The notes: generated from the sequence alone by a model not told the origin. 64,000 nt of DNA from an uncultured bacterium (GCA_963708045.1 OY970181.1:3740-67739), one strand, 5' to 3'; positions 23,647 through 63,076 are shown, counted from the stretch's first letter. Translations and numbers: made by a program.

Positions 23647-23647
23647 A

Positions 23648-24283
23648 TTATTTTGAGAGGGCACTGGTTAGCGCGTCAACGCCCGCGACGGTCATAACGA
23701 GAAACGGACGCTTCATCACATCAACAATATTCAAGCTGTCAATGCGCGATATTTCAACTTTCGGAATATTAGCAATTGATTTCCAAGCTGTTTCCGCGAT
23801 TAAAGGCATGCTGATAAGCGTTCCTTTGCCAGCGCAAGGAAGTTTGGAAAGAATTTTTGCGACAACTTTGGTCTTGTATTCCGGCAAGTTTAGATCCGAG
23901 ACAATGATGAGATTATTATTTTTAACCTTGTCTGTCAGAATCATTCTAAGAGCCGACGCCTTGGCTTTTTTGTTTACCTTAACCGTCCAAACGCGCGTAT
24001 TCCTTGGACCAAAAGTTACGCCGCCACCTTTCCAGATCGGTGAACGAGTTGAACCATGACGAGCGCGGCCGGTGTGCTTTTGTTTCCATGGCTTTTTTCC
24101 GCCACCTCGGACTTCGGCGCGGGTTTTGGTGTGGGCAATAGATTCGCGAGCGTTTGTTTGTTGCGCCGTGACAACTTCATGAATAAGCGAAGGGTTGATT
24201 GTGACGCCAAAAACCTTCGCGTTGAGTTCGCGCTCACCGGTTACTTTGCCTTCTGTGTCGTAGATTGAAACTTTAATAGCCAT
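23648..24283 (-). CDS. rplD: 50S ribosomal protein L4
   Basis: L4 family (GGGKKPWKQKHTGRARHGS). Confidence 0.9.
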   Translation of the reverse strand: MAIKVSIYDTEGKVTGERELNAKVFGVTINPSLIHEVVTAQQTNARESIAHTKTRAEVRGGGKKPWKQKHTGRARHGSTRSPIWKGGGVTFGPRNTRVWTVKVNKKAKASALRMILTDKVKNNNLIIVSDLNLPEYKTKVVAKILSKLPCAGKGTLISMPLIAETAWKSIANIPKVEISRIDSLNIVDVMKRPFLVMTVAGVDALTSALSK

Positions 24284-42853: not shown

Positions 42854-43447
42854 TTATTGTTTCGGCAAAAACCACGTTGGGTCGTACTGCACGCGATCGT
42901 TAACGTGTTCGTACTCATAAAGCTCAACGTCGGAAAACCAGATCGGAATTTCGTATTCAGCTTCTTTGGCATTACCCGAAGCGTGAATCAAATTGCGAAT
43001 CGGACGATTCTGAGTATTAGAAAGCGCATAGCTATCATGCGAAAAGTCGCCGCGGATCGTCCCTGGAGCCGAACCAGCTGGTTCGGTCGCGCCGACAAGT
43101 TTCCTAATGAGCGAAACCGCCGCTTCCCCTTCCCAAACCATCGCGACGATCGGCGCCGACTTTAAAAAATTAACCAATTGGTCTTTAATTGACTTGCCGT
43201 ATGACAAGTGATCAGCAAAAGGAAATTTTTCGCCAAGCGAATCATATTTGGTCTTGGCTTTGGTATAGACACCCATCATCCACTCTTCGGTAAGAGCATA
43301 ATGCTTGTCCACGTCTTCGTGTGATGCGTGAACCATTTTAATCGCCGTGAGCTTAAGACCAACGCGCTCAAAGCGGCCGATGATTTCGCCGATGAGTCCG
43401 CGCTGAACACCATCCGGTTTAATTAAGACGAGAGATTTTTCCATCAT
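42854..43447 (-). CDS. ndk: Nucleoside diphosphate kinase (long form with insertions)
   Basis: LVLIKPDGVQRGLIGEIIGRFE and the active-site His region NLIHASGN. Confidence 0.75.
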   Translation of the reverse strand: MMEKSLVLIKPDGVQRGLIGEIIGRFERVGLKLTAIKMVHASHEDVDKHYALTEEWMMGVYTKAKTKYDSLGEKFPFADHLSYGKSIKDQLVNFLKSAPIVAMVWEGEAAVSLIRKLVGATEPAGSAPGTIRGDFSHDSYALSNTQNRPIRNLIHASGNAKEAEYEIPIWFSDVELYEYEHVNDRVQYDPTWFLPKQ

Positions 43448-43535
43448 ATTCGTTTAACTTTTAACTGTTAACTGTTAACTTTTAGGATCCTTGTCAAACT
43501 AAAAGTTAAAAGTTAAAACTTAAAAGTTAATTAAA

Positions 43536-44450
43536 CTACTTTACCTTCTCGCCCCTAACTTGTAAAGAATAACCATCAGTTATGACAGACACATCGCCAT
43601 CAAGATCGGTTCGGAAATATTTGACACTGGTTTTCTTTAAAAGTTCAAGCACGCGCCAAGTAGGAAAGCCATACATATTTCTCACGCCCAAAGACATTGC
43701 CGCATAAGCAGGCGCAACCGCCGCCAAAAAATTTTCACCGGTAGAATACGCGCTTCCGTGGTGTCCAATTTTTATAAAATCAGCCTTGGGGTTAATGCTG
43801 GACGCGAGTATCTCGTCTTCAACAACCGTTGTCGCGTCACCCATTAAAAGAAAATTTAAATTTTTATATGACAGCATTCCAACAATGGACGAATCGTTTA
43901 ACCCGTCGTTGCTTCCCTTGTGCTTTTTGTCCACGTCAATTTGATTTTCGTAATGCAAAACCTTAAACGACATTTCGCCAACCGCTTCCAGTGAAGCATT
44001 TGAGGGGTTAACAATCAAAATATTTTTTTCTTTGATCGTTGCGTCAAAATCGCGTTGAATCATACTTCCTGAAATCGCATCAGTTTTAAGAATTTTACCG
44101 ACGGAATATTTTTTAATTACCGCATCAAGCCCGGTAATGTGGTCTGAATGCGGGTGGGTTAAAATAATTAGATCAATCGTATTGTCCCCCGCTGGCATTA
44201 CTTCGCCGAGTTTGGCAAGAATAGATGCGTCCGGGCCGCCGTCTATTAAAATTTGCCTGTCGCCGACTTCGGCAAGAATTGAATCACCTTGTCCAACGTC
44301 AAAAACATAAAGACTCATTTCGTCGGGTTTAGGCGGCACTGGCGCGCGCGAACTTATTCTTTCAAGATACGGAACACCAAAAAGGAGCACCCCGCCCATC
44401 GCGGCTGTTAAAAAATAATGACGAAAATTTTTTCTAAAGCGTCGCAACAT
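43536..44450 (-). CDS. ComEC/Rec2-family metallo-beta-lactamase domain protein
   Basis: MBL motif HPHSDHITG and downstream Asp/His ligands. N-terminal TM anchor. Confidence 0.75.
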   Translation of the reverse strand: MLRRFRKNFRHYFLTAAMGGVLLFGVPYLERISSRAPVPPKPDEMSLYVFDVGQGDSILAEVGDRQILIDGGPDASILAKLGEVMPAGDNTIDLIILTHPHSDHITGLDAVIKKYSVGKILKTDAISGSMIQRDFDATIKEKNILIVNPSNASLEAVGEMSFKVLHYENQIDVDKKHKGSNDGLNDSSIVGMLSYKNLNFLLMGDATTVVEDEILASSINPKADFIKIGHHGSAYSTGENFLAAVAPAYAAMSLGVRNMYGFPTWRVLELLKKTSVKYFRTDLDGDVSVITDGYSLQVRGEKVK

Positions 44451-45618
44451 CTTTTTCTTTTATTTTTATATAAACGGCGACTGCAATTAAGCCAGTGGTC
44501 ATTATTATTGCCGCGGCAAAACCGGAAAATAATTGGTTTACGCCAGCAAACGGTAAGCGAGAAAACAATTTAACAAGCGAGAGGTCGTAATTGGTAAAAA
44601 TTTGTGCGACTAAACCAACCAACCTGCCCGCGGGAACAAAAATTAACGACGCTATTGCCGTTAAAAATCCAAAAAACATCGTTACCCCAATAAAAGGCAA
44701 AAGCAAAATATTAGTCGGCAAAGCGACAAACGAAAACCGGCCAAAAACAAAAAGCATTATCGGCAAAGTGGCAAAAGTGGCGGCGGTGGTCGCGACGGCC
44801 ATTTCGCGCAATTTCCATCTTTTAGTTATAAACGAAAACAGCGGCGTTAACGCGGGGCTAAAATATATAAGACCAAACGTGGCGGCAAACGACAAAAGAA
44901 AACCGACATCCGTTCCAATTAAGCGCGGTGAAATTAAAAGCATTGCCGCGGCGGCGACAAATACAGCGCGGCCGGCCTGCGACTCGCGACCAACCGCAAT
45001 GGCAATCATCATTACCATTACCATCACTCCAGCGCGGACAAGCGACGACGGCGCGCCAGTAAGAATTATAAAGATAAGGAGCGTCGCGGCAACTAAAATT
45101 TTTCTTAAAATTTTTCCAAACGGCAGTGACAAAAATATATTGTCCAAAAATTCAGAAATAACCGTCAGGTTCCAACCGGAAAGCGCCATCACGTGAACCG
45201 TCCCCGTCGCGACAAACGCTGCCTTAAGATCGGCGGGCAATTTTCCTTCGCCAACAAGCAGACCATTAATGAACGAGGCATGCGGTTCGGGAAGCGCCAA
45301 AGCAACCGCGTTCATAAAAGTTATTTTAATTTGCGGAAAAAGAACGAAATCTACAGGCACGCCGGACGACAAAAAACGACAAAAACCGCAAGCAAAAAAA
45401 GACGCCATCGCAAAAATAAATCGCCACGTTTTTCCAATCGGCAAAAAGAAAATTACTATTCCCGTTCCAAATGCGCCAATCCAGAAAGGTACGAGACTTG
45501 GAAATGTTTTTTCGGGAAAAAACAACGCACCAAAACAAATGCCAGCCACAAACGAACCAACGGCGAAAATAAAATTAGCCGAGGGCGAGGCGATAATTTT
45601 TAAAAATCCCCCTTTCAT
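44434..45618 (-). CDS. ComEC/Rec2-family competence membrane channel domain protein
   Basis: Polytopic membrane protein with competence-domain-like region. 17-nt overlap with the MBL-domain ORF, so the two together equal a split ComEC. Confidence 0.65.
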   Translation of the reverse strand: MKGGFLKIIASPSANFIFAVGSFVAGICFGALFFPEKTFPSLVPFWIGAFGTGIVIFFLPIGKTWRFIFAMASFFACGFCRFLSSGVPVDFVLFPQIKITFMNAVALALPEPHASFINGLLVGEGKLPADLKAAFVATGTVHVMALSGWNLTVISEFLDNIFLSLPFGKILRKILVAATLLIFIILTGAPSSLVRAGVMVMVMMIAIAVGRESQAGRAVFVAAAAMLLISPRLIGTDVGFLLSFAATFGLIYFSPALTPLFSFITKRWKLREMAVATTAATFATLPIMLFVFGRFSFVALPTNILLLPFIGVTMFFGFLTAIASLIFVPAGRLVGLVAQIFTNYDLSLVKLFSRLPFAGVNQLFSGFAAAIIMTTGLIAVAVYIKIKEKDVATL

Positions 45619-48088: not shown

Positions 48089-48202
48089 AAATTATGGACG
48101 GCGAACAATTCAATATTGAAATATTCCCACAAAATCAAAGTTTTCGCAATACGCCTCGTAACAAAAAACGAGGGGTTCCACCCCTCGTTTTTTATATACA
48201 AT

Positions 48203-49285
48203 TTAAATTTTTTTAATAATCTTGATGACCCCTTGTTCCGCATCAACTTCTATTTCATCTCCATCTTTAAGAACTTTGGTGGCAATTTTGGTACCAATGA
48301 TACAGGGTTTGCCAAGTTCGCGCGCAACAATCGCCGCATGACAAGTAACCCCACCTTCGTCAGTAACGATTGCTGAGGCCGTTTTCATTGCGGGCACGAA
48401 ATCGGGTGAGGTCATCGCCGTAACAAGAATCGCATCTTTCGGAAACAACTTAATATCATCATGTGTAAATACCAGACGCACCGATCCAGTCACAGCCGGC
48501 GCTTTAAAAGCGATTGACCCCTTAAACGATTGTACTTCCTCCGTTTCCAGAAATGAATATCGGTATCCTCGTTTTCCCAACAATTCCGAAAAAGACTTAC
48601 CAATAACTAGTTCATCTCCAAACAAAACATAGCCGCTAGTCCTAGTATCAAGAATATCCTGTTTTGGCGCGACGCCGCGAACAAACATTTCCCTAAGTTC
48701 AGAAACAGTAAGGAGGTGTGCAAAACGGCGCGCGATACCAAGAGTCTCCAGTCTGGAACAGGCCATATCTCGCACAAAGGCGTCAACCTGCTCAAACAAA
48801 CCTTCCAAAAATACACGATTATCATATTGCGCCTTAAGGTATTTCTCGGCCGCTTCGCCTTTTGCTTCCTTAAACGCTTCGGCAAACGGTCCGGGAAGAA
48901 AAACCGAAAACATATAGCCGGGGTACATTGTTGCCCAAAGTTCAAGGCAGCGTTCGTACACCATAGTATATTCCGAAGACTCTACTGAGTGTTGCTTAAT
49001 AAGCTCGCGCAATTGAACTGCTGCTTTGCGGGTCTTTTCCCGAAACTCGTCAGAAAATAATTGATGATCAAAGGGGAGTTGGGCAATGTGTGCGCGCAAT
49101 GCCTCAACTTCATCGCGAACGCGATACGCTTCAAGTGCGCGTCCGTTAAAATTGCAGATTTGAATTGAAAAACTTTTGCCCCACACCTGCTTTACTTCCT
49201 GATCAAGTAACGATTTCCACCAAAACTGGGCGGTAAAAAGAGAAAAGTCCCTGGTAAATATCAAATCTAATAATTTCTTTTCCAT
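48203..49285 (-). CDS. PEP-utilizing enzyme mobile (phosphohistidine swivel) domain protein with an N-terminal helical domain of unknown function
   Basis: C-terminal GGVTCHAAIVARELGKPCIIG motif of PEP synthase/PPDK swivel domains. There is no ATP-grasp or PEP-binding domain. Confidence 0.65.
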   Translation of the reverse strand: MEKKLLDLIFTRDFSLFTAQFWWKSLLDQEVKQVWGKSFSIQICNFNGRALEAYRVRDEVEALRAHIAQLPFDHQLFSDEFREKTRKAAVQLRELIKQHSVESSEYTMVYERCLELWATMYPGYMFSVFLPGPFAEAFKEAKGEAAEKYLKAQYDNRVFLEGLFEQVDAFVRDMACSRLETLGIARRFAHLLTVSELREMFVRGVAPKQDILDTRTSGYVLFGDELVIGKSFSELLGKRGYRYSFLETEEVQSFKGSIAFKAPAVTGSVRLVFTHDDIKLFPKDAILVTAMTSPDFVPAMKTASAIVTDEGGVTCHAAIVARELGKPCIIGTKIATKVLKDGDEIEVDAEQGVIKIIKKI

Positions 49286-49316
49286 GGGTTTGTTTTGGTT
49301 ATTTTTTTATTCATTT

Positions 49317-50549
49317 TCAAACTCCTCGTGCCAACATCGTCTTCTCCAACCGACCGAGGGCAAGAATGTAAGCGGCGGTGCGCAGATTAACTTTGTATTC
49401 GTCTTTAATTTTCCAAATCGCGGCAAAATTTTCTACAATAATTGGTTCAAGTTTGGCAAGCACTTCAGCTTCTTTCCAAGAGACCCGCGCCAAGTTTTGC
49501 ACCCATTCAAAATACGAAACCGTAACCCCGCCGGCATTCGCTAAAACGTCGGGAACGACCGGAATGCCGCGCGTTTCAAAAATATTTTCCGCTTCGGTCG
49601 TTGTTGGACCGTTCGCTAGCTCAACAACCGCCTTGGTTTTTATTTTTGCCGCGTTCTCAACGGTCAAAACATTTTCCAGCGCCGCTGGCACAAGAATGTC
49701 ACAGTCAATTTCCAAAAGCTCGGCATTGGTAATTTGTTTGGCGCCAGGAAAATCAACAAGCGATCCGTGTTTCTCTTTCCACGCATGAACACTGATCGGC
49801 TCCAGGCCAGACTCGCTAAAAATTCCGCCTTTGGAATCAGAAAGAGCGACGATTTTGTATCCAGATGCGTGCGCAAGGCGGGCAAAGTGGTAGCCGACGT
49901 TCCCGATTCCCTGAACCGCCAGCCGCGTTTCGCTTGGTAATAAATTTAATTTTGTCGCGAGTTCGCGTAGGGCATAAAAACCACCTTGACCAGTCGCAGC
50001 TTCGCGGCCTTCCGAGCCATAGAGCGCGAGTGGTTTCCCCGTAAAGGCACCGAAAACATTTTCTTTAGTGATTTTGGAAAGTTCGTCCACCATCCACGCC
50101 ATTTCGCGCGGACCAGTGCCAACGTCCGGCGCCGGCACATCACGCCTTTCACCAATCACAGAACTTAACTCACGGACAAAGCCGCGCGAAAGCGCTTCTA
50201 ATTCGGTCGCCGAAAGTTTTTTCGGATCAACGGCAATACCGCCCTTGCCGCCGCCAAAAGGAATTCCCGAGACTGCGGTTTTCATTGTCATCCAAAGCGC
50301 GAGTGCCTTAACTTCATCCAAATCAGCCTGCGGATGAAAACGAATGCCGCCCTTATACGGTCCGCGTGAATTGTTCCATTGCACGCGGTAGGCGTCAAAA
50401 TCGCGCATTTCCCCGCTATCCATCACGACCGAAATTTTAAATTGAAAAATCTCGTTCGGCCGGCTTAATTTTTCTAAAACGCGGGGATCTAATTTAATCA
50501 CCGCCGCCGCGCGCGTTAATTGATCAATGGCATTTTTAAAGGTATTCAT
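49317..50549 (-). CDS. gdh: Glutamate dehydrogenase (NAD(P)+)
   Basis: GDH signature KGGIRFHP, GGGKGG, and Rossmann GxGNVG. Start set at MNTFKNAI; the ORF track start is 50630. Confidence 0.85.
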   Translation of the reverse strand: MNTFKNAIDQLTRAAAVIKLDPRVLEKLSRPNEIFQFKISVVMDSGEMRDFDAYRVQWNNSRGPYKGGIRFHPQADLDEVKALALWMTMKTAVSGIPFGGGKGGIAVDPKKLSATELEALSRGFVRELSSVIGERRDVPAPDVGTGPREMAWMVDELSKITKENVFGAFTGKPLALYGSEGREAATGQGGFYALRELATKLNLLPSETRLAVQGIGNVGYHFARLAHASGYKIVALSDSKGGIFSESGLEPISVHAWKEKHGSLVDFPGAKQITNAELLEIDCDILVPAALENVLTVENAAKIKTKAVVELANGPTTTEAENIFETRGIPVVPDVLANAGGVTVSYFEWVQNLARVSWKEAEVLAKLEPIIVENFAAIWKIKDEYKVNLRTAAYILALGRLEKTMLARGV

Positions 50550-50662
50550 AGAAGTCCAGATTATCCCACCCGCCCGGAAACTGCAATACGAAACACATGT
50601 ACCATGTACCACATACCACACACCATCCATTAATGAGTGGTTTATGGTTCATGGTACATGGT

Positions 50663-52345
50663 TCATCGCGGTGCTTTTTCCAAAATCCTAACCGTCCCGT
50701 GCAAAGCGCGGACTTCTACGAGGTCGCCGTCGTGAAGAAGTTCGGTCGCATTTTTGGTGCCGATAATACAGGGTTTACCTAGCTCGCGGGAAACAATCGC
50801 CGCGTGCGAGGTTATCCCGCCCTCGTTCGTCACAATGCCGGCGGCTTTTTTCATAAGCGGCACAAATTCCGGCCGCGTCATTCCCGTTACCAAAATTTGC
50901 CCTTCTTTAAATTTAGAAAATTCATTAACCGTTCGCACAACGCAAACGATTCCTTTAGCAAACCCCTGCGACGCGACTTTGCCCGCGATTACCGAATCAT
51001 GTTCCTTGCCGCCAATCTTATTCTCTAACTCTTTGCGAAGAGACAACGCCTCGTCGCCATAAAGCACCCGATAGTCAACCCCTTCGGCAATGTAGATGGC
51101 ACCATTGTTACGACGATCCTCTAGTGTCGCCTTGGTAAGCACACCTTTTAAAACACTGGCAACCTCATTATGATTTAGATACGATAAGCAATTTACAGGA
51201 ATACCTGTGCGCCGTTCTATTTCTTGCAAGACTCGCAAAAAAGCGACAATGCCCATTAAATTATATTTCTTTCGCGATTCGCGCCAAGCGGTTAATTTTT
51301 GAAAAAACGCCAACGGATTAACCTTAAGCCCGCGCTGTCGCAATATTTTTGTGATTATTGCTTCGCGCGTTTCGCTAAACGTTTCCAGTTCGTGAATTTC
51401 CATTTTTATAGCTTCGGGGTTGGATAAATATTTATCAAGCTCAGCCACGATTTCTTCGTTAGAGATTGAACGATAAACCGCGTAGTTTGATTGATAATAA
51501 TCAAAATGTCTGACGTAATTTTTTATATCAGTACTTTTTTCCACAAAATCTTTAATCATTTTAAGACGAGCACTACCACTCCAGCGTTTATGTAAAAGCG
51601 TTCGCGCGATTTTTAACAAAGCCAGTTTCCGCTCGCGATCAATAGAAAGCTCGTTGGTTGTCGTGAGTGCGACTGTGTCCTCAACTGAAAGATTATTTTT
51701 TTGCGCAATTCTTTTTATTTCCTCTTGATCAAAACCGGCGTCAAAAGAATCTATAAATAAACTTGCGTCCCAGAACGGATCATACGCAACTAAAATGCTG
51801 GCGGAAAATTCCGCAAGCTCGTGATCGTTTAAAGACGCGAGAATCTCACCACTGTTTTCCAAATAAATATTTTCAATTTTTGATGCCGCCCGCTCGTATT
51901 CAGCATAAAGCAAATCAAAATCCGCCATTTTTGAATATTGGCGATAAACTTGATTGGACCATTTGTTCATTTCGTCAAAATCCCAATATGCCCAAAAGTA
52001 ACCTTTCTGCGCGTAATAGATAAAATGTTTTTCAAATTTATTTCCTAGACCACAATTAATACGGACAAAAGGTGAAAAAAGCGTAAACGGCACACCTTCC
52101 CCTTCTTGACGATAGGGTTTAATTTCGTTTGATTTTTTACTCGGCTCAATTTTCATTTCAATCAACTGCGCAAGCGGAATATCGTAGGTCGTGCAAATTT
52201 TTTCTATCGTTTCAAACTTAATCCCATCCACTTTATTGTGAAAGAGAGCGGTCACCGTATTGCGATTCAAACCCGTGTCTTCAGCAATTTCCAAAATTGT
52301 CTTCCCTAATTTTTCGCTTAATTCCTTAATTTTTATTGTAATCAT
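50663..52345 (-). CDS. XRE-type HTH DNA-binding domain fused to a C-terminal PEP-utilizing swivel (phosphohistidine) domain
   Basis: N-terminal HTH (ELSEKLGKTILEIAEDTGLNRNTVTALFHN) and C-terminal GGITSHAAIVSRELGKPCIIG. Start set at MITIKIK, because the ORF track's extension to 52981 runs through the promoter and overlaps the opposite-strand gene. Confidence 0.65.
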   Translation of the reverse strand: MITIKIKELSEKLGKTILEIAEDTGLNRNTVTALFHNKVDGIKFETIEKICTTYDIPLAQLIEMKIEPSKKSNEIKPYRQEGEGVPFTLFSPFVRINCGLGNKFEKHFIYYAQKGYFWAYWDFDEMNKWSNQVYRQYSKMADFDLLYAEYERAASKIENIYLENSGEILASLNDHELAEFSASILVAYDPFWDASLFIDSFDAGFDQEEIKRIAQKNNLSVEDTVALTTTNELSIDRERKLALLKIARTLLHKRWSGSARLKMIKDFVEKSTDIKNYVRHFDYYQSNYAVYRSISNEEIVAELDKYLSNPEAIKMEIHELETFSETREAIITKILRQRGLKVNPLAFFQKLTAWRESRKKYNLMGIVAFLRVLQEIERRTGIPVNCLSYLNHNEVASVLKGVLTKATLEDRRNNGAIYIAEGVDYRVLYGDEALSLRKELENKIGGKEHDSVIAGKVASQGFAKGIVCVVRTVNEFSKFKEGQILVTGMTRPEFVPLMKKAAGIVTNEGGITSHAAIVSRELGKPCIIGTKNATELLHDGDLVEVRALHGTVRILEKAPR

Positions 52346-52360
52346 AAAATTATATGAATA

Positions 52361-52461
52361 GTGTACTAGGCACACTATATAATATCTATTCACCTTTGTC
52401 AAGATTGTGCCTAGTACACTAACCAACCACCCTTGACAAATCATTAAAAACGTGTTAGCAT
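52361..52461. promoter_or_regulatory. Divergent promoter region with a pair of 14-bp inverted repeats (candidate operator for the HTH-swivel protein)
   Basis: GTGTACTAGGCACA (52361-52374) and its reverse complement TGTGCCTAGTACAC (52406-52419). Minus-strand promoter TTGACA-17-TATAGT (52374-52402). Plus-strand promoter TTGACA-17-TAGCAT (52433-52461). Confidence 0.5.
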
Positions 52462-52519: not shown

Positions 52520-53101
52520 ATGAACGACCTTTCTATTCTGTTTCTGCGCCACGGCGCGACCACCCCGCTCGACAAGACCGTTCCTGTGAGCCAAGGCGAC
52601 CCAGCTCGCGTCCTTACGAGCGAAGGCATTGCCCGCGCCGAAGAGGTCGCCACTGACCTCGCATCGCAGAGCTTCGGGCTCATGATCACGTCCGGGGTAT
52701 CTCGGACGGTTCAAACCGGCGCCATCGTCGCGGCCAAGCAGCAGAAGCTGGTTGACATCATGAGCATACGTAGCCTGTACATGCCACTCGACCAAAACGA
52801 GGTCAACAGGTTGTTCGCGCTTTTCGATAAAGCGACAACCCCACGGCTTGCCCAGGAAGTCATGGAGATCCGAAGTATGTGCGAGGCACAGGCAGAAATC
52901 ATTCTCGCCGAGTGTAAACTCCGCAGCAACCCATATACGCTGGCCGTGAACCATATGGTTCTGATTCAACTCATCGCCCACGCAATGGGCGCCTCGGAAA
53001 ACGTCCTCGACGCGAAACTGGAGCCTTGCGACGGACTCTGGGTCAATATCACAGCCGAGGGGACAACCTGGCTCCGCTACTCAGCCCCCAAGGCGGCCTA
53101 G
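52520..53101 (+). CDS. Histidine phosphatase family protein (phosphoglycerate mutase-like)
   Basis: RHG motif (LFLRHGAT) at the N-terminus. Strong GGAGG RBS and noticeably higher GC than the surroundings. Confidence 0.65.
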   Translation: MNDLSILFLRHGATTPLDKTVPVSQGDPARVLTSEGIARAEEVATDLASQSFGLMITSGVSRTVQTGAIVAAKQQKLVDIMSIRSLYMPLDQNEVNRLFALFDKATTPRLAQEVMEIRSMCEAQAEIILAECKLRSNPYTLAVNHMVLIQLIAHAMGASENVLDAKLEPCDGLWVNITAEGTTWLRYSAPKAA

Positions 53102-53212: not shown

Positions 53213-53890
53213 CTACTCATTTTTGTCGAGGCGAAACCTCGGCCAATCAGAATCTATGCGCTTTTTCCCAATCAACCCTAACACAAAATCGCGGTATTTC
53301 TTTTTATTTTTAAATTGATTTAATACTATTTCTGAATTATCTACAATACTCTCTCCTTGTCTAATACCGATGTAATCAAAGTAACTAGACCATTTAAATT
53401 TATTGAGTAAACGATTTAATAGTTGCATATCGTGGCAATTGGGCGTAATTGCTTCCACTGGATTTAAGTGAATATAGCGCGTTAAATGAAGTAAGTATGA
53501 ATTATCTTTGATATGTTTGCTTTTAAAAACTCCTTGGAACAATACTCCCGATCTTTCATAACGCTTATTAAAATACATAGTGTACCCAGTTAATAATTTT
53601 TGAATATATTTTGATATCCCGTTTTCTTGTACCTGCTCCAGTATCAAATGAAAATGATTTGGCATTAAACAATATGCGACAATTTTAACCAAAGCCTCTG
53701 GCCGATTTGGTCGAGGCGAAACCTCGGCCAAAAGACGATTAAAATGATTAATTGGTTCAAGCGAGTTAAATAATTTCATACCAAGAATGAACCGCTCATA
53801 ATCTTTGTTTTGTAAAAAGACACGCCTTTTATCTGTCCCCCTATTATAAATGTGATAAAATTCACCATTAGTAAAAACCAGGTTACGCAT
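53213..53890 (-). CDS. REP-associated tyrosine transposase (RAYT, IS200-like Y1 transposase)
   Basis: YHIYNRG, HUH motif NHFHLIL, and conserved Tyr region. Flanked by REP hairpins. Confidence 0.7.
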   Translation of the reverse strand: MRNLVFTNGEFYHIYNRGTDKRRVFLQNKDYERFILGMKLFNSLEPINHFNRLLAEVSPRPNRPEALVKIVAYCLMPNHFHLILEQVQENGISKYIQKLLTGYTMYFNKRYERSGVLFQGVFKSKHIKDNSYLLHLTRYIHLNPVEAITPNCHDMQLLNRLLNKFKWSSYFDYIGIRQGESIVDNSEIVLNQFKNKKKYRDFVLGLIGKKRIDSDWPRFRLDKNE

Positions 53891-55579: not shown

Positions 55580-57574
55580 TTACGTAAACTGTATCTTCCT
55601 CTCCTTCTTTTCAATATTCAAGAAAACCAGTTCGTCGCCAACTGCGAGAACGGGGCGAATTTTTATTTTACAACCAAACTCGGTGCCAGCGCGAACTTCT
55701 TTGACGGCCGCTTTCATTGATTGCAATTCCACAATTTCTCCAGTTTCCAATTCCGCACCCTCGCGATAAACGCGCACCGAGGCGGTCTTGGTTACTTTTC
55801 CATCTTTGACCACACCACCCACGATCATTGAACTTTTTTCCGTGCGGAAAATTGCCAAAATCTGACCGCGACCAAGTTCGGTTATAATAACCTCTTCAGG
55901 AAGCAATTCTTGAAGCGCGGCTTTGACATCGTCTAAAATATCGTAAATGACTTTGGCTTTTTTAACAACCACCTTTTTGTCACGCGCCAAATTTTCTACC
56001 GGCGTCGGCACCAAAACGTTAAAACCATAAACAACGGCGCCCGATGCTTCGGCGCGGATAATATCGGATTCGTTAACGTTCCCGAGTCCGCGCGAAACAA
56101 TTTCTACGCCCACCTCGGGGTTGCGGAATTTTTCTAGTGATGAAGAAAGCGCTTCAAGTGAACCAAGCACGTCAGTCTTAAGAACCACCTTAACCATTTT
56201 CTTGGTTTCTTTTTCTTCGCTTGTCGCGGCCACGGCTGAAACTTTGGTCATTGTTGCGCGACCAGCTTCTTTCACGTCCTTTTCTAATCCTTTAATGGTT
56301 TCCGGAACAATAATAACATCGCCGACCGACGGTGCCGCTTTTAATCCCAATATTTTAACCGGCATTCCCGGCAACGACTCTTTAAGCGCGCGATTGTTCC
56401 AATCGCGCATTGCGCGCACTCGTCCGTAAAGCATATTGCCGATCGCGAGATAGTCATTTACCTTAAGCGTGCCACCAGCAATGAGTACCGTCGCGACCAC
56501 GCCTTCGTTTTTGTCTATGTGCGACTCAACAACCGTTGCCACAGCGCGACGAGCCGGATTGGCCAGCAATTTTTCTTTATTAAGATCAGCGACGAGCAAA
56601 ACCATTTCCAAAAGCGCGTCAATGTTTTTTCCTTCTTTGGCCGAAACTGGAACAAAGGGAATTTTTCCGCCCCAATCTTCAGCTTGAACGTTATGCTCGG
56701 CAAGCTGGCGTTTTACTTTTTCTGGATCAGCGTCCGGCTTGTCAATTTTATTCATCGCCACCACAAAAGGGATTTTGGCCGCTTCAATAATTCCCAAGGC
56801 TTCCAAGGTTTGTGGTTGAACGCCGTCGTCGGCCGCAACAACCAAAATTGCAACGTCGGCAATTCGCGCGCCGCGCGAGCGCATTGTCATAAAAGCTTCG
56901 TGGCCGGGCGTATCAATAAAAGTAATTTTACGATCCCGTTTTTCCACCTGATAAGCGCCAATGTGCTGGGTAATACCGCCGGCTTCGCCGCCCATTACGT
57001 TTGTCGCGCGAATCGCGTCCAAAAGTTTTGTCTTGCCGTGGTCAACGTGACCCATCACAACGACAACCGGCGGACGCGGGGTGGTTGCGTTCGCGTCATT
57101 TCCCAAAATTCCTGCCAATTTTTCTTCCATTGAAGCACTGCCGCTTTCAACTGTTTCCGACTCAACTTCCGGTTCGGTCTTAAAACCAAGATCTTCGGCG
57201 ACGATCGTTGCTGTTTCAAAATCAATCCGTTCATTCATTGAAGCCAGAATTCCATTTTTCATCAATTCCGAAATAACCCGCGTGACCGGCAAATTTAAGC
57301 GTCCGGAAAAATCTTTAACTGTCACGAGTTTGGGAAGCTTAATTGAACCGCCCGAAACAGCCATAGCTTTTTCAACTTCAATCTTTTCTTTGGAAAGCTT
57401 GGTCATTCGCTCGCGCTCTTGGCGCCAGCGCGGCCATTCGCGAACAACGCGAGCAGCGAGCTGATCGTCAATTTTGATCGCCCGTTTGCCAATATCAAGT
57501 CCATGCTCTGGGAGCACAACAAAAAGTTCAGCCGTGGTGGTGCGTAATTTTCGCGCAAGTTCGGTTATATTCAT
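55580..57574 (-). CDS. infB: Translation initiation factor IF-2
   Basis: G-domain [21 protein letters not shown]. 664 aa. Confidence 0.9.
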
Positions 57575-57581
57575 GTTTCCT

Positions 57582-57610
57582 TACTTTATGCGGAATTTGC
57601 CTTTGTGTCA
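57582..57610 (-). promoter_or_regulatory. Candidate infB promoter (TTGACA-17-TAAAGT) with AAGGA RBS
   Basis: Minus-strand TTGACA at 57605-57610 and TAAAGT at 57582-57587, about 8 nt before the infB ATG. Confidence 0.45.
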
Positions 57611-57644
57611 ATTATTTTGACCGAAAATTAAGAAAGAATTTATA

Positions 57645-57682
57645 AAATAAAAAACACCCCTAAGGGTGTTTTTTATTTTAAT
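57645..57682. terminator. Intrinsic terminator after the pilin gene / before infB
   Basis: AAAAAACACCCCTAAGGGTGTTTTTTATTTT. Confidence 0.7.
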
Positions 57683-57685
57683 TGA

Positions 57686-58135
57686 CTAGCGAGTCATGCT
57701 GATCGCTTCGGAAAGTTCAGCACCAGGAGCGGCTATTGTAATGCGGCCAGAGGTTTCATCGCGCATAATTGTGTAACCGCTATTGTATTCGGTCGTGCTT
57801 GTCCAACCAGCACCAGCGGCCGATGGGTCAAACGGCAAGGAGGCGGCGTAAGTCGGAACCAAACAAGGACCAATATCATAACCAGTATCGGAATCCATAT
57901 TGGTAGCGGTTGTCGGAATAACGCCAGCGACACAAGTAAAGGTTCCGCGGTTATCGGTTGTGTTGGCAATAACCGAACTCATTATCGTGTCCATATTATT
58001 CCAGCGCTGGGCGTTTCTGGCTTGCGAGAATTGGCGCGCCGGGTTAAGAGCAACAATGAGGACGCCAGCCAAAACGGCGATAAGACCGATAACGATCAAG
58101 ATTTCAATGAGTGTAAAAGCTTTATTTTGTTTCAT
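57686..58135 (-). CDS. Type IV pilin (major pilin candidate), copy 1
   Basis: MKQNKAFTLIEILIVIGLIAVLAGVLIV prepilin signal. Start set at the internal ATG. Near-identical N-terminus and C-terminus to copy 2. Confidence 0.75.
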   Translation of the reverse strand: MKQNKAFTLIEILIVIGLIAVLAGVLIVALNPARQFSQARNAQRWNNMDTIMSSVIANTTDNRGTFTCVAGVIPTTATNMDSDTGYDIGPCLVPTYAASLPFDPSAAGAGWTSTTEYNSGYTIMRDETSGRITIAAPGAELSEAISMTR

Positions 58136-58295
58136 ATTGATTAATGAACTTAATTTTTTTAATACATTTATCACCACATCTTTGCCCATTAACTTATTAA
58201 AGTTGCAGGGACATCCGCTGTTTCGACCTTTATGCGGCAGAGGAAACAATGAAAAATGTTTTTTAGATAATCAATGGATGATTATCTTTTTTTAT

Positions 58296-58751
58296 TTAGC
58301 GAATCATATTAATTGACTCCGAAAGTTCGGCGCCAGGAGCGGCAATTGTGATACGACCAGTTGTTGCGTCGCGCATAATGGTGTAGTTCAGATCGTAATC
58401 GGCCGAAGTCGTCCAGTGTGCGCCAGAAGCAGAAGGATCAAACGGCAAAGAGACGGCATAGGTTGGAGACAAACAAGGACCAATGTCGTAGTTCCCAACA
58501 CCATTTGCCATTTTGGTAGCAGTGGCAGGAATGGCGCCGGCACCCGTGCAAGTGAAGGTTCCGCGATTATCAGTCAGGTTAGCGATGGTCGCACTCATAA
58601 TCGTGTCAATATTATTCCAGCGTTGTGCGTTCCGAGCTTGCGAGAACTGACGTGCCGGATTAAGAGCGACAATGAGGACGCCAGCCAAAACGGCGATAAG
58701 ACCGATGACGATTAAAATTTCAATGAGTGTAAAAGCTTTATTTTGTTTCAT
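58296..58751 (-). CDS. Type IV pilin (major pilin candidate), copy 2
   Basis: Same prepilin signal and same C-terminal RITIAAPGAELSE motif as copy 1. A tandem paralogue. Confidence 0.75.
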   Translation of the reverse strand: MKQNKAFTLIEILIVIGLIAVLAGVLIVALNPARQFSQARNAQRWNNIDTIMSATIANLTDNRGTFTCTGAGAIPATATKMANGVGNYDIGPCLSPTYAVSLPFDPSASGAHWTTSADYDLNYTIMRDATTGRITIAAPGAELSESINMIR

Positions 58752-58855
58752 ATTAATTAATGAACTATTTTAATAATTTTTTATGTAGGTGGAATTTCCG
58801 TCCACGAATTGAGGTAAAACTGACTCGTGTTGATTCCGGTGAAATCAACCTTTAT

Positions 58856-59281
58856 TCAACTAGTAAAGCCGTTAACTGTTGCTTGGGCGTAAAGAGTGCG
58901 CGCGTTTCCATTAATAACGGTGGCACCAATTGAACACACTACCTTGTCCACAGAGATATTCTCATTACCAGTATAACTGGTATTCTTCTTTAGACGCAAT
59001 ACGGCAATATTGGCGCACGAAAAAGCTGAGGATCGCGCTTGCACAGCAGAGGCGCGATTATTTATTTCTCGGCTTTCAATTAAATAATCAGCAGCCAAGC
59101 TAAGGCTGGAAATAAGAGCGATGCCGCTAATTAAAACAACGCTAGTAATCGCGGCAAAGCCGGAACGAACGTTGAGACCCCTCGTTGCGCTCGGGGTGAT
59201 TTTTGCGGTTTTGCCGCAAAAATCAATTTTGTCGGGGGACGGTGGCTGTACCATATAATGTAATTGACGACGAATAATCAT
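58856..59281 (-). CDS. Hypothetical pilus-associated protein with N-terminal hydrophobic segment
   Basis: Sits in the pilus gene cluster. Divergent prepilin-like N-terminus (GFAAITSVVLISGIAL). 24-codon overlap with the upstream ORF. Confidence 0.4.
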   Translation of the reverse strand: MIIRRQLHYMVQPPSPDKIDFCGKTAKITPSATRGLNVRSGFAAITSVVLISGIALISSLSLAADYLIESREINNRASAVQARSSAFSCANIAVLRLKKNTSYTGNENISVDKVVCSIGATVINGNARTLYAQATVNGFTS

Positions 59282-59942
59282 TCATCACGGTTCCCGTTGG
59301 AGGCGCCGAAACAGTTAGAACAATTCTGATAACTGACTTCGCGGCCGTGGACTGCAAACACGATCCAAGCTTGGCTTGACCCAGCAAAAGATCAAGAAGT
59401 AATCTTAGCCACCCCCCGCTAAGGTAGCCGGGGTATTTATCCCAACAATAATCCGTCTGATTGCTCTTTTTGCAAATGATGCAGTACCAGCTGCCACTAT
59501 GTTCACTCTCATTACATGGAACCCAGCCCGGCGATGTCCGCGCGTGAGCGACCGGATCAACCAAATTGGTAAAAGTCAAACTAGCTACTTTTACGCCAGC
59601 TGAAGTCAGCGGCACAGCCGCGCCAGCCCCCTGCTTCATTGTTAACACGCCGTTTGTTACCTGAAAAACCGTCGGCGACACCGCGGCACTCGGCATCGTT
59701 AGCGTTAGCGAACTTCCGCTCGTTCCATCGCTTGGCGAGGTCGCGTCTTTTGAATTTCTTATTGTTGAAACCATTTTTTCAACGGCAAAACGGGCGTTCT
59801 GATTAACTTCAAGCACGGTTGCAACTTTAGCTTCGCGACGCACGAGATTTACCATAAAACTCATAAGCGTTGCCATAATTATTACAAGAATGGCAACGTA
59901 AAGCATCGTTTCCAACATTGTTGAGCTGCGGCGAATCATCAT
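59223..59942 (-). CDS. Minor pilin-like protein (PilW/PilX-like candidate)
   Basis: N-terminal TMLETMLYVAILVIIMA hydrophobic helix preceded by a short leader, in cluster context. Confidence 0.45.
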   Translation of the reverse strand: MMIRRSSTMLETMLYVAILVIIMATLMSFMVNLVRREAKVATVLEVNQNARFAVEKMVSTIRNSKDATSPSDGTSGSSLTLTMPSAAVSPTVFQVTNGVLTMKQGAGAAVPLTSAGVKVASLTFTNLVDPVAHARTSPGWVPCNESEHSGSWYCIICKKSNQTDYCWDKYPGYLSGGWLRLLLDLLLGQAKLGSCLQSTAAKSVIRIVLTVSAPPTGTVMNDYSSSITLYGTATVPRQN

Positions 59943-60361
59943 ATAAATGGCCAGTCAGTGATAAGGAGTTGTTCGTTAACCGTTGCCGTCCGATTTGGCG
60001 CCGGATTCCAACTCACCGTAACGTCAATCTTTTTTGTGTCAGCGTCAACTGTGCTCACCGTTACAACTCGCGTCATCCCGTTTAACGTGTCCGAAGTGCC
60101 GCTAAAAATCCACATCAAAGGTGACGCTTGCGTTCCAAGACCATGCGTTCCAACGGCAAGCGCCGTCCATGAACGATCGCTTATAGAAATTGAGGCTTGA
60201 ATCCCCTCCTCGGCAAAGAAAACTGCCTCCATTTCCCTAGACGTCTGTGACACACCCGATTCAACAACTGTTAATATGGAAATAGAGGCGGTGATGCCAA
60301 TAGTCATTACGCCGATGGCGATAAGTATTTCTACCATTGATTGTCCGCAGCGTTTTTTCAT
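59939..60361 (-). CDS. Prepilin-type N-terminal domain protein (minor pilin)
   Basis: GQSMVEILIAIGVMTIGI class III signal-like N-terminus. Confidence 0.55.
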   Translation of the reverse strand: MKKRCGQSMVEILIAIGVMTIGITASISILTVVESGVSQTSREMEAVFFAEEGIQASISISDRSWTALAVGTHGLGTQASPLMWIFSGTSDTLNGMTRVVTVSTVDADTKKIDVTVSWNPAPNRTATVNEQLLITDWPFI

Positions 60362-60795
60362 TGTTTTGAAATTCTCCCAACTGAATTAATAACAATCGTC
60401 ACGGTTTTTATTCCATTTGTGACGGTTATTGTCCCGGTTACCGAAGGCGTACCGGTTTGTTTGGCAAAAACCACTTCGGAAATTCCAGAAAATTGAAAAT
60501 AATTTCCATAAGGACGAGTCAGATCGTAAACAGTTTGTTTTAGGGCGTAAGAATTTCCACTAAAGAGAGTTATTTTTCCATCCACCGTAGAAACGCCGTG
60601 ACTTATGTTCCTCTCGCTTTGAAGCGAACGGGTTTCGGCCGCGCGTAAATATGTCATGAGCGCCCCCGACACCGCCTCAAGCTCGCGATTTTTCATAAAA
60701 TTTACCGTGGTGTAAACAGCGAAACCAAGAACGATCAAACCGACGCAGGTCGCAACAACGGTTTCAATAATCGTAAACCCGTTTCTTTGGCGCAT
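60358..60795 (-). CDS. Prepilin-type N-terminal domain protein (PilV/GspH-like minor pilin)
   Basis: NGFTIIETVVATCVGLIVLG prepilin motif. Confidence 0.65.
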   Translation of the reverse strand: MRQRNGFTIIETVVATCVGLIVLGFAVYTTVNFMKNRELEAVSGALMTYLRAAETRSLQSERNISHGVSTVDGKITLFSGNSYALKQTVYDLTRPYGNYFQFSGISEVVFAKQTGTPSVTGTITVTNGIKTVTIVINSVGRISKQ

Positions 60796-60798
60796 AAA

Positions 60799-61956
60799 TT
60801 AACGGTGAATACCTTCCGTTATTTTATAGATCGGAGTAATAACCGAAACCGCGACAAAACCAACAACCAAACCCATAATGAGTAGGAGCACCGGCTCAAT
60901 AATTGTTGTCATATTATTAACCGTGTCGTCAATTTCCTTGGTTAAGAAATCGGAAATATACCGAAACGAATCATCAAGCTTGCCGGTTTTTTCGCCAACG
61001 CGAATCATCTGAATAACAATCGGCGGAAAATATTTTGTGTTTAAACAATCGGCAATGTTCACCCCCTGGCGACTTACTTCGTTTGCGATTGCCAAAAGTT
61101 CGCGTTGAAAAACAAGGTTGCTTAAACTTTGCGAGGTAATATTTAACGCCCGAACGACGTCTACCCCAGCATCAAGCAGTGTCGCCAAAACCTGTGCCAA
61201 ACGAGTAATTTGCGCGTCGCGAAGCAATGGTCCAAAAACGGGAATCATCAGTTCGGTTTTGTGCAAAAAATATCTAAATTTTTTGTTAAGGAGCAATAGA
61301 CGAATAGAAATAATTAAAGCGGCAATTATTAACCCGATATAAACAACATTGGAAGAAACAAAGTGTGAAAAATCAAACAGGAATTGCGTGGTCGGCGGCA
61401 AAGAAACCTTTAGCGAAATAAAGATCGGCAAAAGCTGGGGCAAGGTAACAAAGCAAAGAAAGCCGGTGATACCAAAAACGCCAGCCAAAATAATCGCCGG
61501 ATAAATTAGAGCGCCGCGAACTTTTTTCCTGAGCGTATCGGCGCGTTCTATTTGCACAGAAATATAATTTAGATTTTCCGAAAGCTGGCCGCTTTCTTCA
61601 CCAACTCTGACCAAATTTACAAAAAGGTTATCAAAGATTTTTGGAAATTTACTGAGCGCGAGTGAAAGATATTGTCCATTCTCAACTTCACAAATTACGT
61701 AATCAAGAATTTTAGCAAAGCGCTTAATTTTGGTTTGCCCCCTGATCACGTCCAACGATTCCCGAAGTGGAATCCCCGCATTGGTCATAATAGAAAGATG
61801 TTTGGCAAAAAATATCTTTTGTTTGGTGGGAATATTGCCGTAGACTTTTATTTCTGGACATTGTTCCGTTATCTTGGCCGGCTTTTTTTCTATTTTTTTT
61901 ATGGACGCTGGAGGCATAAAATATTTATTCTTGAATAACACGCAAGACCTCGGCAA
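60799..61956 (-). CDS. pilC: Type IV pilus assembly platform protein PilC / GspF family
   Basis: Two GspF-like repeats with three TM helices. 385 aa. Confidence 0.8.
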   Translation of the reverse strand: MPRSCVLFKNKYFMPPASIKKIEKKPAKITEQCPEIKVYGNIPTKQKIFFAKHLSIMTNAGIPLRESLDVIRGQTKIKRFAKILDYVICEVENGQYLSLALSKFPKIFDNLFVNLVRVGEESGQLSENLNYISVQIERADTLRKKVRGALIYPAIILAGVFGITGFLCFVTLPQLLPIFISLKVSLPPTTQFLFDFSHFVSSNVVYIGLIIAALIISIRLLLLNKKFRYFLHKTELMIPVFGPLLRDAQITRLAQVLATLLDAGVDVVRALNITSQSLSNLVFQRELLAIANEVSRQGVNIADCLNTKYFPPIVIQMIRVGEKTGKLDDSFRYISDFLTKEIDDTVNNMTTIIEPVLLLIMGLVVGFVAVSVITPIYKITEGIHR

Positions 61957-63076
61957 TGGAGGTCATTCCTGAACCAGCTTTGGCAAAACCGTCTTCAAGC
62001 ATTGTCGTCATCCCGTTTTTTACAGCTGCGTCCAAAATATTTTCGGACGATGCTTTGCTGACAATGAGATCACGGATGTTTCCAAAAACTTCTAATACTT
62101 CATAAATACCAATCCGACCCTTGTAACCGGTTCCGCCGCAAGTTTTACAACCGCCGCCGATCCAAAAATTTTTATACATCCCGATGAGACGTTCAGAGAT
62201 AACGGATTTGAGGCGTTCGGTTTCGGCAGCAGTCGGAAGATATTCTTTTTTGCAATCCGGACAAATTTTTCTAACCAAACGCTGGCCAATAGCAATGTTA
62301 ACCGTTGAAGCGATGAGAAACGGCTCAATACCCATATCAATAAGCCGTGGCAGAGTCGTTGCCGCATCGTTTGTGTGGATTGTGGACAAAAGAAGGTGGC
62401 CTGTGAGCGCGGCATTAACGGCGATGGAAGCAGTTTCGTCGTCGCGAATTTCGCCGACCATTATCACGTTTGGATCCTGACGAACGATTGAGCGGAGGCC
62501 TTTGGCAAAAGTTAGATTGGTCGCGGTGTTAACTTGAATTTGCGTCACGCCATCCATTGAGTATTCTATCGGATCTTCAATGGTGGTGATAGAGACTTCG
62601 GGCGTATTCAACATTTGAATGAGCGTATAAAGTGTTGTTGTCTTGCCTGATCCGGTCGGTCCGGTCGCGAGAATCATTCCATGCGGACGATGAATATATT
62701 TTTCAATTAATTCTTTGTCACGCTTAGCAAAACCAAGTTCAGTAAGCGTAAACGCTTTAACCTGCGAAACCAAAAGACGAAGCACGGCGTCTTCGCCATG
62801 ATAAGACGGAATAATTGAAACGCGCAGGTCAACCGGCGTTTCGTTAAACGTAACCCGAAAGCGCCCGTCCTGAGCGGCCTGGTGTTCGTCGGTTCGGAGG
62901 CCGCAATTTACTTTTATCGTCGTGATGATTTGGTTAAGCAATACTTTGGGCAAAGAAAAAACTTTATTCATTACCCCGTCAATGCGAAAACGAATATCCA
63001 CTTGTTTTTCCGCCGGGTCAATATGCACGTCGGAGGCATGCATCAAATACGCCTGCTCAATCATATAGTCAACCAA
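61925..63076 (-). CDS. pilB: Type IV pilus assembly ATPase, PilB/GspE family
   Basis: Walker A GPTGSGKTT, Asp and His boxes, and a tetracysteine CPDCKK...CKTCGG motif. The N-terminal domain may continue upstream in another frame. Confidence 0.8.
   Translation of the reverse strand: MVDYMIEQAYLMHASDVHIDPAEKQVDIRFRIDGVMNKVFSLPKVLLNQIITTIKVNCGLRTDEHQAAQDGRFRVTFNETPVDLRVSIIPSYHGEDAVLRLLVSQVKAFTLTELGFAKRDKELIEKYIHRPHGMILATGPTGSGKTTTLYTLIQMLNTPEVSITTIEDPIEYSMDGVTQIQVNTATNLTFAKGLRSIVRQDPNVIMVGEIRDDETASIAVNAALTGHLLLSTIHTNDAATTLPRLIDMGIEPFLIASTVNIAIGQRLVRKICPDCKKEYLPTAAETERLKSVISERLIGMYKNFWIGGGCKTCGGTGYKGRIGIYEVLEVFGNIRDLIVSKASSENILDAAVKNGMTTMLEDGFAKAGSGMTSIAEVLRVIQE

Follow-up and report, generated by a model that had tools for sequence, protein, structure and literature searches.

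Why should a DNA-binding domain be joined to the phosphohistidine swivel of a dikinase? The question is raised by a gene for a 560-amino-acid (560-aa) protein at positions 50663 to 52345, on the minus strand, of a 64,000-nucleotide stretch of DNA from an uncultured bacterium of the small-genome, Patescibacteria type (GCA_963708045.1, OY970181.1:3740-67739), which was analyzed as a whole and is called the window here. A sequence-only reading of the window had noticed that this protein opens with an XRE-type helix-turn-helix (HTH), that both it and a 360-aa protein encoded nearby end in a swivel, and had proposed a regulator switched by a phosphorelay. We favor, with a probability of about 0.55, a combined model in which the 560-aa protein is enzyme and repressor in one polypeptide, namely, the H component of a split ATP-dependent dikinase of the rifampin phosphotransferase (RPH) type.

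Domain make-up of the 560-aa protein

The predicted domain order of the 560-aa protein is an XRE HTH, a central domain of about 370 aa, and a phosphohistidine swivel, as judged from Pfam matches, 44 homologues with an identical start, and an AlphaFold2 (AF2) model (pLDDT 91, pTM 0.82). The DNA-binding domain (residues 1 to 66; 52148-52345, minus strand) matches HTH_26 (PF13443) over residues 6 to 64, with an E value of 1.2e-11 and 45.1 bits against a cutoff of 22; its fold is a helical HTH that can be superposed on known XRE repressors. A short linker of low confidence (residues 67 to 73, pLDDT below 50 in the AF2 model) connects it to the enzyme part. The swivel (residues 450 to 556; 50678-50998, minus strand) matches PEP-utilizers (PF00391) over residues 479 to 549 (E = 8.4e-26) and, in a PDB sequence search, the phosphoenolpyruvate (PEP) synthase 8a8e (E = 7.5e-26). 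It carries the motif GGITSHAAIV, in which the catalytic residue is His514 (codon 50804-50806). In the 360-aa protein, the PEP-utilizers match covers residues 281 to 352 (E = 2e-27), and the shared motif GG[IV]T[SC]HAAIV places the catalytic histidine at position 316. Both proteins thus end in a swivel, as first proposed, and the claim that both lack the remaining dikinase domains also holds, since neither matches PF01326 (ATP-grasp, PPDK_N) or PF02896 (PEP/pyruvate-binding) in Pfam.

The deposited annotation and a mechanical list of open reading frames (ORFs) stretch the HTH gene to 52981, for a product of 772 aa. The 212 additional N-terminal residues would run across the promoter and operators described below and into a divergent gene of the His_Phos_1 family. 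Because 44 homologues of 552 to 588 aa share the first Met of the 560-aa protein, and because the longer call spans the promoter and overlaps the divergent gene, the 560-aa reading with its N-terminal HTH is correct and the 772-aa call is a mis-called start. The homologues of the same length and the position of the promoter also rule out that the HTH is an artefact of a fusion or of a wrong start, the latter a possibility that the sequence-only reading had itself raised.

Membership in the PEP synthase, PPDK, or Enzyme I family can be ruled out, given that the match is limited to the swivel and that the ATP-grasp and TIM barrel domains were not found. In PDB sequence searches, the alignments to PEP synthase, PPDK, Enzyme I, and RPH are all confined to the swivel. 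The NCBIfam models of the PEP synthase/PPDK type score 113 to 130 bits against cutoffs of 598 to 740 and cover the swivel only; likewise, the model for Enzyme I of the phosphotransferase system (PTS; TIGR01417) scores 38.9 bits against a cutoff of 341.7 and aligns with the swivel only. No curated NCBIfam model covers the 560-aa protein. A known anti-phage defense protein was ruled out as well, since no system matched: among the PADLOC defense-system models, the 560-aa protein gave only a weak generic HTH match (E = 1.6e-4), and the 360-aa and His_Phos proteins gave nothing.

The central domain retains residues of a second phosphotransfer site

The central domain (residues 77 to 445; 51011-52117, minus strand) is homologous to the rifampin-binding, or second substrate, domain of RPH. 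When the family profile "LtyWReeRKk" is aligned to "fIGYREYPKY" of RPH-Lm, R355, E356, and K359 fall on R666, E667, and K670; by this alignment and by conservation, R355-E356-S-R358-K359 (51269-51283, minus strand) corresponds to R666-E667-Y-P-K670, the second phosphotransfer site. In RPH, the phosphate is held by these three residues while the second transfer takes place, and rifampin is no longer phosphorylated when R666 or E667 is changed to alanine (PMC4844700). Within the HTH clade, conservation is complete at R355 and K359 and 98% at E356. The [ED]-x-R-K core is also retained in 186 paralogues without an HTH, together with E394, R411, and the swivel histidine. On this comparative evidence, the roughly 370-aa middle of the protein is predicted to be an RPH-type substrate-binding domain rather than a spacer.

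The catalytic histidine of GGxT[SC]H is present in 43 of the 45 members of the HTH family, which bears on another doubt raised at the outset, namely, that the phospho-accepting residue might be missing; the motif GGxT[SC]HAAIVSRELGKPC is complete and nearly identical in those 43. The swivel is of the PEP-synthase type, and the Thr two residues before the histidine (Thr512) is kept in the 560-aa family, whereas HpeH and RPH have Met there. Twenty positions are invariant specifically in the HTH clade, including Y161, F197, Y277, D282, N343, P344, Q460, and Y462, a pattern that argues for an orthologous group selected for one ligand. Taken by its domains, the 560-aa protein is, by prediction, an XRE HTH plus the H (or A) component of a two-component dikinase, and it looks like a working kinase subunit and repressor because its RPH-type domain keeps the residues of the second phosphotransfer. 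The idea of a regulator switched by a phosphorelay therefore survives in part: the fusion is conserved and its histidine kept, but the middle retains substrate-transfer residues and is not that of a bare phospho-receiver.

The closest match to the 560-aa protein is the H/A subunit of HpeHI, CreHI, and PpsAB (phenylphosphate synthase), two-component small-molecule dikinases in which one protein holds the ATP-grasp and another the substrate-binding domain and swivel (PMC12167813). As in those enzymes, an RPH-type substrate-binding domain is followed by a C-terminal swivel, and the catalytic histidine and the acidic and Lys phosphotransfer residues are conserved; a separately encoded ATP-grasp would be a further shared feature, as seen next to some orthologues. 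The differences are that the H part is 480 or 360 aa here versus about 600 to 650 aa, that the swivel is PEP-synthase-like in having the Thr two residues before the histidine, that one orthologous clade has an N-terminal XRE HTH, and that the genes occur in large paralogous arrays rather than in clusters for aromatic catabolism. RPH itself (PDB 5HV1, 5FBS) has its ATP-grasp at the N terminus of the same single chain and lacks a DNA-binding domain; identity is 17 to 21%, and nothing points to rifamycins as the substrate of the 560-aa protein.

Predicted operators at the promoter of the HTH gene

The HTH gene and the divergent His_Phos_1 gene are 174 bp apart, and this interval has two promoter-like sites. 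One is a sigma-70-type promoter of the HTH gene, TTGACA-17-TATAGT (52374-52402, minus strand), which agrees with the consensus at 11 of 12 positions; the other, upstream of the His_Phos_1 gene, is TTGACA-17-TAGCAT with a TG extension (52433-52461, plus strand). The sequence-only reading had described matching 14-bp inverted repeats in this promoter. The repeat is genuine and extends to a perfect 16-nt pair (52359-52374 and 52406-52421) flanking TTGACA-17-TATAGT, but a comparison of the regions upstream of the orthologues shows that each arm is itself one copy of an 18-bp palindrome, TGnCTAGT-NN-ACTAGnCA, and hence a putative operator of its own. The first predicted operator, O1 (TGCCTAGTACACTAACCA, 52408-52425), is centered about 80 bp before the ATG, abuts the -35 box, and lies between the two divergent -35 boxes. 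The second, O2 (TGAATAGTGTACTAGGCA on the plus strand, 52355-52372), is found about 27 bp before the ATG; it immediately follows the -10 box and spans the point where transcription of the HTH gene is expected to begin. Because one operator overlies the transcription start, repression is the favored outcome of binding.

The palindrome is present upstream of the orthologue in 12 of 16 distinct loci: it lies at -79 to -93 in the window, L083, L084, L001, L002, L004, L006, L007, L011, L012, and L046 and at -53 in L035, and a second copy occurs at -27 to -29 in the window, L083, L001, L011, L012, and L046. In a survey of 83 related loci (L001 to L082 and the window; 1.38 Mb in total), 17 of the 18 matches at the chosen threshold were immediately upstream of HTH genes, whereas mononucleotide-shuffled sequence gave 3 to 8 matches that were randomly scattered. 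The 14-nt core of the inverted repeat has no further exact copy within the 64 kb. Autoregulation is supported because the motif recurs upstream of the orthologues and almost nowhere else, and there is good comparative evidence that the 560-aa protein would bind its own promoter at the two palindromes. A scan of the window for further operators found no other strong site, just a weak one, GTATTAGTAAACTAGGGT (score 10/13; 23200-23217), where two minus-strand genes meet (22359-23198 and 23203-23664); this is probably due to chance.

Distribution of the fusion and its putative ATP-grasp partner

The family of HTH fusions amounts to 45 clusters at 90% identity in a word-indexed search. Forty-two have both domains; P0042 and P0044 have no HTH match, and P0045 has no PF00391 match. 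An exhaustive phmmer search with the central domain alone, over 1.84 billion representatives, gave 41 at E values of 1e-30 or lower. All sources are Patescibacteria-type metagenome assemblies, those with a name being given as Patescibacteria, Uhrbacteria, Magasanikbacteria, Falkowbacteria, and Paceibacterota; the labels of a few metagenome-assembled genomes (MAGs) look unreliable. The fusion thus appears, across these searches, to be rare but conserved. Split RPH-type dikinases and fusions of enzyme and repressor are already known ideas. We found no report in the literature of an HTH fused to the H component of a dikinase, and the remark in the sequence-only reading that no characterized regulator combines an HTH and a swivel agrees with our finding none in the literature or among the curated NCBIfam models. 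An HTH followed by an RPH-type substrate-binding domain and a swivel appears to be a regulator design for which no earlier description was found.

HTH orthologues often head co-directional sets of dikinase genes. At L084 (55% identity to the 560-aa protein), the order is the HTH fusion, HD, PPDK_N, an H-type protein of 464 aa, and glutamate dehydrogenase (GDH), with gaps of -4 to 30 nt. At L006 (42% identity), the fusion is followed by HD and PPDK_N, and at L001 (also 42%) by a PPDK_N-swivel protein and two H-type proteins. In all, PPDK_N is found beside the HTH orthologue at L084, L006, L001, and L002. At L083, the closest of these relatives (65% identity), the order is a divergent His_Phos_1 gene, the fusion, GDH, a bAvd-like gene, and LeuRS. 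The HTH clade also heads arrays of paralogues at six loci (L001, L007, L012, L018, L022, and L046), and the orthologues of L004, L008, L009, and L011 stand alone, with no dikinase neighbor. The ATP-grasp domain missing from the 560-aa protein can be explained by a split enzyme, since a stand-alone PPDK_N shares the operon in relatives.

A proposed combined enzyme and repressor, weighed against the alternatives

The combined model builds on features demonstrated in silico, namely, the predicted domain identities, the catalytic residues at both sites, the operators, and the partners in orthologous operons. Dimers of the HTH would sit on the two 18-bp palindromes and repress the HTH gene's own promoter; their binding could also affect the divergent gene of the histidine phosphatase family. 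On the pattern of RPH, HpeHI, and PpsAB, His514 would be pyrophosphorylated from ATP by an ATP-grasp protein encoded on its own (PPDK_N, about 311 aa). The swivel would then return to the central domain, where R355, E356, and K359 would help pass phosphate to a bound small-molecule ligand. Occupancy of the ligand pocket, phosphorylation of His514, or both would decide whether the HTH dimers hold the operators, so that expression of the dikinase subunit would track the supply of substrate or ATP. The 360-aa protein would act as a second, shorter H-type subunit, cotranscribed with the glutamate dehydrogenase gene (gdh) and using the same ATP-grasp partner.

Several points weigh against this model. 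The evidence is computational throughout, and the coupling of ligand or phosphorylation state to DNA binding is something that we purely infer. The ATP-grasp partner is unproven in this organism: tblastn and hidden Markov model (HMM) searches found no PPDK_N gene in the window, and the 1.19-Mb contig of this genome carries none of the 120 top-ranking clusters among more than 7,592 of PPDK_N homologues. A clear upstream copy of the operator motif is missing at four orthologue loci (L008, L009, L018, and L022). Two family members, P0041 and P0045, lack the histidine, so phosphotransfer may be dispensable in some lineages. Finally, because a conserved hairpin and a promoter-like leader intervene, gdh and the 360-aa gene seem not to belong simply to the regulator's operon here.

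Some of these points suit a rival explanation, a ligand-sensing repressor that retains a retired enzyme module, like NagC and Mlc of the ROK family: a metabolite would release the DNA, and the swivel would no longer cycle phosphate in vivo. The syntenic L083 contig, like the window, yielded no ATP-grasp gene, two members have lost the histidine, and the orthologues of L004, L008, L009, and L011 have no dikinase neighbor. Yet the near-identical His motif in 43 of 45 members indicates purifying selection on a phosphocarrier function, and PPDK_N lies in the operon at L084, L006, and L001; we therefore consider a retired module quite improbable. An equally doubtful alternative, in line with the sequence-only reading, is that His514 serves only as a receiver from an upstream donor and toggles DNA binding, with the central domain as a scaffold or dimerization module. 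High conservation of His514 and the surrounding motif would be expected under this explanation, as would retention of Thr512, the regulatory Thr of PEP synthase and PPDK, which differs in HpeH and RPH. The linkage of histidine-phosphatase-family genes to swivel genes also fits it, and VadK of Mycobacterium tuberculosis, a regulatory histidine autokinase derived from PPDK, is an example of a swivel-domain protein that phosphorylates itself and has a regulatory role (PMC13400623). Against it, R355, E356, K359, E394, and R411 are as conserved as the histidine, the pocket-side residues are invariant in the clade, and a scaffold role would hardly account for an enzyme domain of 370 aa whose active site is intact. 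Least probable is an uncoupled bifunctional protein whose HTH provides negative autoregulation (dosage control) only, with no signal passing between its two parts, which would suit an operator motif confined essentially to the gene's own promoter in about 1.4 Mb and the short, low-confidence linker, but leaves unexplained why the HTH is confined to a single orthologous clade when the paralogues number in the hundreds and why that clade heads paralogue arrays at the six loci named above.

The combined enzyme-repressor model has precedents in part. BirA, NadR, PutA, and the ROK repressors likewise join a metabolic enzyme module to a DNA-binding domain at their own or a pathway promoter; in BirA, the catalytic state is the signal (biotinoyl-AMP), and the same could hold for the 560-aa protein. 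Their folds and chemistry are unrelated, however, and they have neither a phosphohistidine swivel nor an ATP-grasp subunit acting in trans. The PTS-controlled regulators LicT, MtlR, and LevR, which contain PRD domains, resemble the regulator proposed here, as VadK does, in regulation through histidine phosphorylation by PEP-utilizing or dikinase members. The former differ in having PRD and EII-like domains and no swivel, and VadK has its own ATP-grasp, lacks a DNA-binding domain, and acts through protein contacts. One-component regulators are classed by their sensor domains. If the combined model is true, they would gain a new sensor module: an RPH-type pocket with a swivel to which an ATP-grasp protein supplies phosphate in trans. 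Such a module could sense a metabolite and the energy state together. The system is directly testable, having a defined predicted operator, a single conserved histidine, and a partner of known type.

Paralogue arrays and phosphatases in CPR and DPANN genomes

The central domain and swivel are far more widespread without the HTH, occurring in bacteria of the Candidate Phyla Radiation (CPR) and in DPANN archaea (such as Woesearchaeota, Micrarchaeota, and Nanoarchaeota). The 83 loci contain 333 swivel ORFs, with a mean of 4 per locus and a maximum of 12 in roughly 20 kb; three or more swivel genes are found at 45 loci, and the modal length of the ORFs is 470 to 520 aa. Most of their N-terminal domains (281 of 310) belong to one BLAST-linked family. 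PPDK_N is encoded at 36 of the 83 loci, mostly as a stand-alone protein of 311 to 330 aa. More than 7,592 clusters match the stand-alone PPDK_N at E values of 1e-40 or lower, the best 120 of them at 66 to 87% identity to the query, versus 25 to 45% identity among the H-type proteins; the difference fits one ATP-grasp protein serving many H subunits, as we infer from the sequences. The archaeal loci have close PPDK_N relatives (HMM E values of 1e-108 to 1e-140), and this closeness across domains of life hints at interdomain transfer or very strong constraint.

Some loci encode giant ORFs of up to 3,761 aa, in which an N-terminal PPDK_N ATP-grasp leads a chain of as many as 8 swivel modules, with a central domain ahead of several of them (L055, 3926-15211, from a Woesearchaeota MAG; L043, 1662-6050; L021, 8783-12484; and L017, 1-3501). 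These are a fused version of the arrays seen elsewhere. A resistome survey lists such genes simply as "rph-like" (PMC8651080), and beyond its counts, we found no literature report of the CPR/DPANN swivel arrays. The expansion of split dikinases in these organisms is large and apparently unstudied, and few proteins of the 83 loci are as conserved as the partner ATP-grasp.

The gene divergent from the HTH gene (52520-53101, plus strand) encodes a 193-aa protein of the histidine phosphatase superfamily (His_Phos_1; Pfam E = 1.6e-10). A His_Phos_1 gene is also divergent from the HTH gene in L083 (5244-5837), and others are found in L001 (14740-15342) and L002 (11697-12569 and 14775-15410). Of 21 His_Phos_1 genes, 17 have a swivel or PPDK_N gene no more than 300 bp away, significantly above the 4.9 expected under random placement, and HD, LMWPc, and metallophosphatase genes also recur near swivel and PPDK_N genes. 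Assignment of the His_Phos_1 protein to SixA or another specific NCBIfam family was rejected, with scores far below the cutoffs (SixA, E = 5e-4). Candidate roles for the linked His_Phos_1 proteins are those of a product phosphatase or of a phosphohistidine phosphatase.

CPR and DPANN organisms have minimal metabolism and depend on hosts. Since the family is kept in multiple copies in such organisms, it probably bears on acquiring or neutralizing host molecules. A bolder extension, which we regard as speculative and rather unlikely, is that ultrasmall symbionts (CPR and DPANN) have a previously undescribed hub-and-spoke phosphohistidine network of their own, with the HTH fusion as its transcriptional output. 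One ATP-grasp protein would charge many H-type subunits, each phosphorylating, and thereby trapping or inactivating, a different host-derived molecule; His_Phos_1 and HD phosphatases would reset the system or process its products, and the HTH paralogue would report charge state or substrate load to the promoter. Such a network, if real, would fill the role of the PTS in organisms without one.

gdh and the 360-aa protein

As transcribed on the minus strand, the HTH gene (52345-50663) is followed by gdh (50549-49317), the 360-aa gene (49285-48203), and a terminator (48192-48160). The gdh gene encodes a 410-aa glutamate dehydrogenase by Pfam and NCBIfam, and its start at 50549 is confirmed. About 10 nt ahead of its ATG, within a conserved leader, is the sequence TTGCAG-N15-TGgGATAAT. 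A long RNA hairpin (50585-50669, minus strand; dG -49 kcal/mol, z -4.1) extends over the stop of the HTH gene and has a U-rich tail after it. L083 has a hairpin in the equivalent place (7690-7822), with a different stem sequence and compensatory changes, and the 50 nt after the hairpin (50550-50600 in the window) are identical at 46 of 50 positions between the window and L083. A dispersed repeat was ruled out, as one arm matches in the window only itself and the opposing arm. The hairpin probably acts as a terminator or attenuator that separates the HTH gene from gdh. The 360-aa gene begins 31 nt past gdh, and the unit of these two genes ends at an intrinsic terminator (48160-48192, minus strand) with an A-tract, a CGAGGGG-loop-CCCCTCG stem, and a U-tract (dG -25.8 kcal/mol, z -6.5). 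This unit may have its own promoter, separate from that of the HTH gene; read-through from the regulated promoter into gdh is possible.

The sequence-only reading took the two swivel genes bracketing gdh as a hint of control of nitrogen and carbon metabolism. The link with gdh is limited to close relatives: gdh is a neighbor at only 3 of 19 HTH loci, those of the three closest genomes (window, L083, and L084), and is absent from the other 16, so a family-wide link is ruled out. In the window, moreover, the hairpin and leader lie between the HTH gene and gdh. The GDH of L084 is 76% identical to that of the window. The bracketing of gdh by two paralogues is lineage specific, as the syntenic relative L083 has the bAvd-like gene where the window has the 360-aa gene.

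The 360-aa gene (48203-49285, minus strand) encodes a short H-type protein made up of a helical N-terminal domain and the swivel (His316 codon, 48338-48340). Its identity to the 560-aa protein, 43%, extends over the C-terminal 169 residues only, and profile-profile alignment pairs its residues 178 to 360 with 376 to 558 of the 560-aa family. When the N-domain was aligned locally, profile to profile, with the central domain, nothing was found ahead of residue 178. In a forced global alignment, which is only suggestive, the N-domain falls on the C-terminal half of the central domain, with an ambiguous placement of R157 at R355 or at R358. The single-chain PPDK_N-X-swivel protein of L001 aligns with residues 51 to 352 at 31% identity. 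We consider the 360-aa protein a putative shortened H-type subunit whose N-domain may be related to the helical central domain, a relationship that is weak for the first 177 residues. The N-domain was earlier called helical and different; helical it is, but these alignments and the L001 match are moderate evidence for a shortened relative of the central domain. The protein's own family (A2) comprises 12 clusters, and the swivel histidine is kept in 11, that is, in every member that reaches the swivel, P0195 being truncated before it. The last 45 or so residues of its swivel (48203-48340) are about 85% identical to those of the 464-aa H protein of L084 (4203-5597); the N-domains of the two proteins cannot be aligned, a combination that suggests domain shuffling among paralogues.

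Neighboring genes

A 225-aa gene of the IS200-like Y1 transposase family (53213-53890, minus strand) occupies the same syntenic position in L083; it appears to be resident, perhaps domesticated, and not newly inserted. The flanks of the locus (42854-45618 and 55580-63076) encode an NDK with an N-terminal extension, a metallo-beta-lactamase-fold protein, ComEC, LeuRS, IF2, and thioredoxin reductase, along with two N-methyl pilins and the type IV pilus genes T2SSF and T2SSE. These surrounding genes fit a CPR-type genome.

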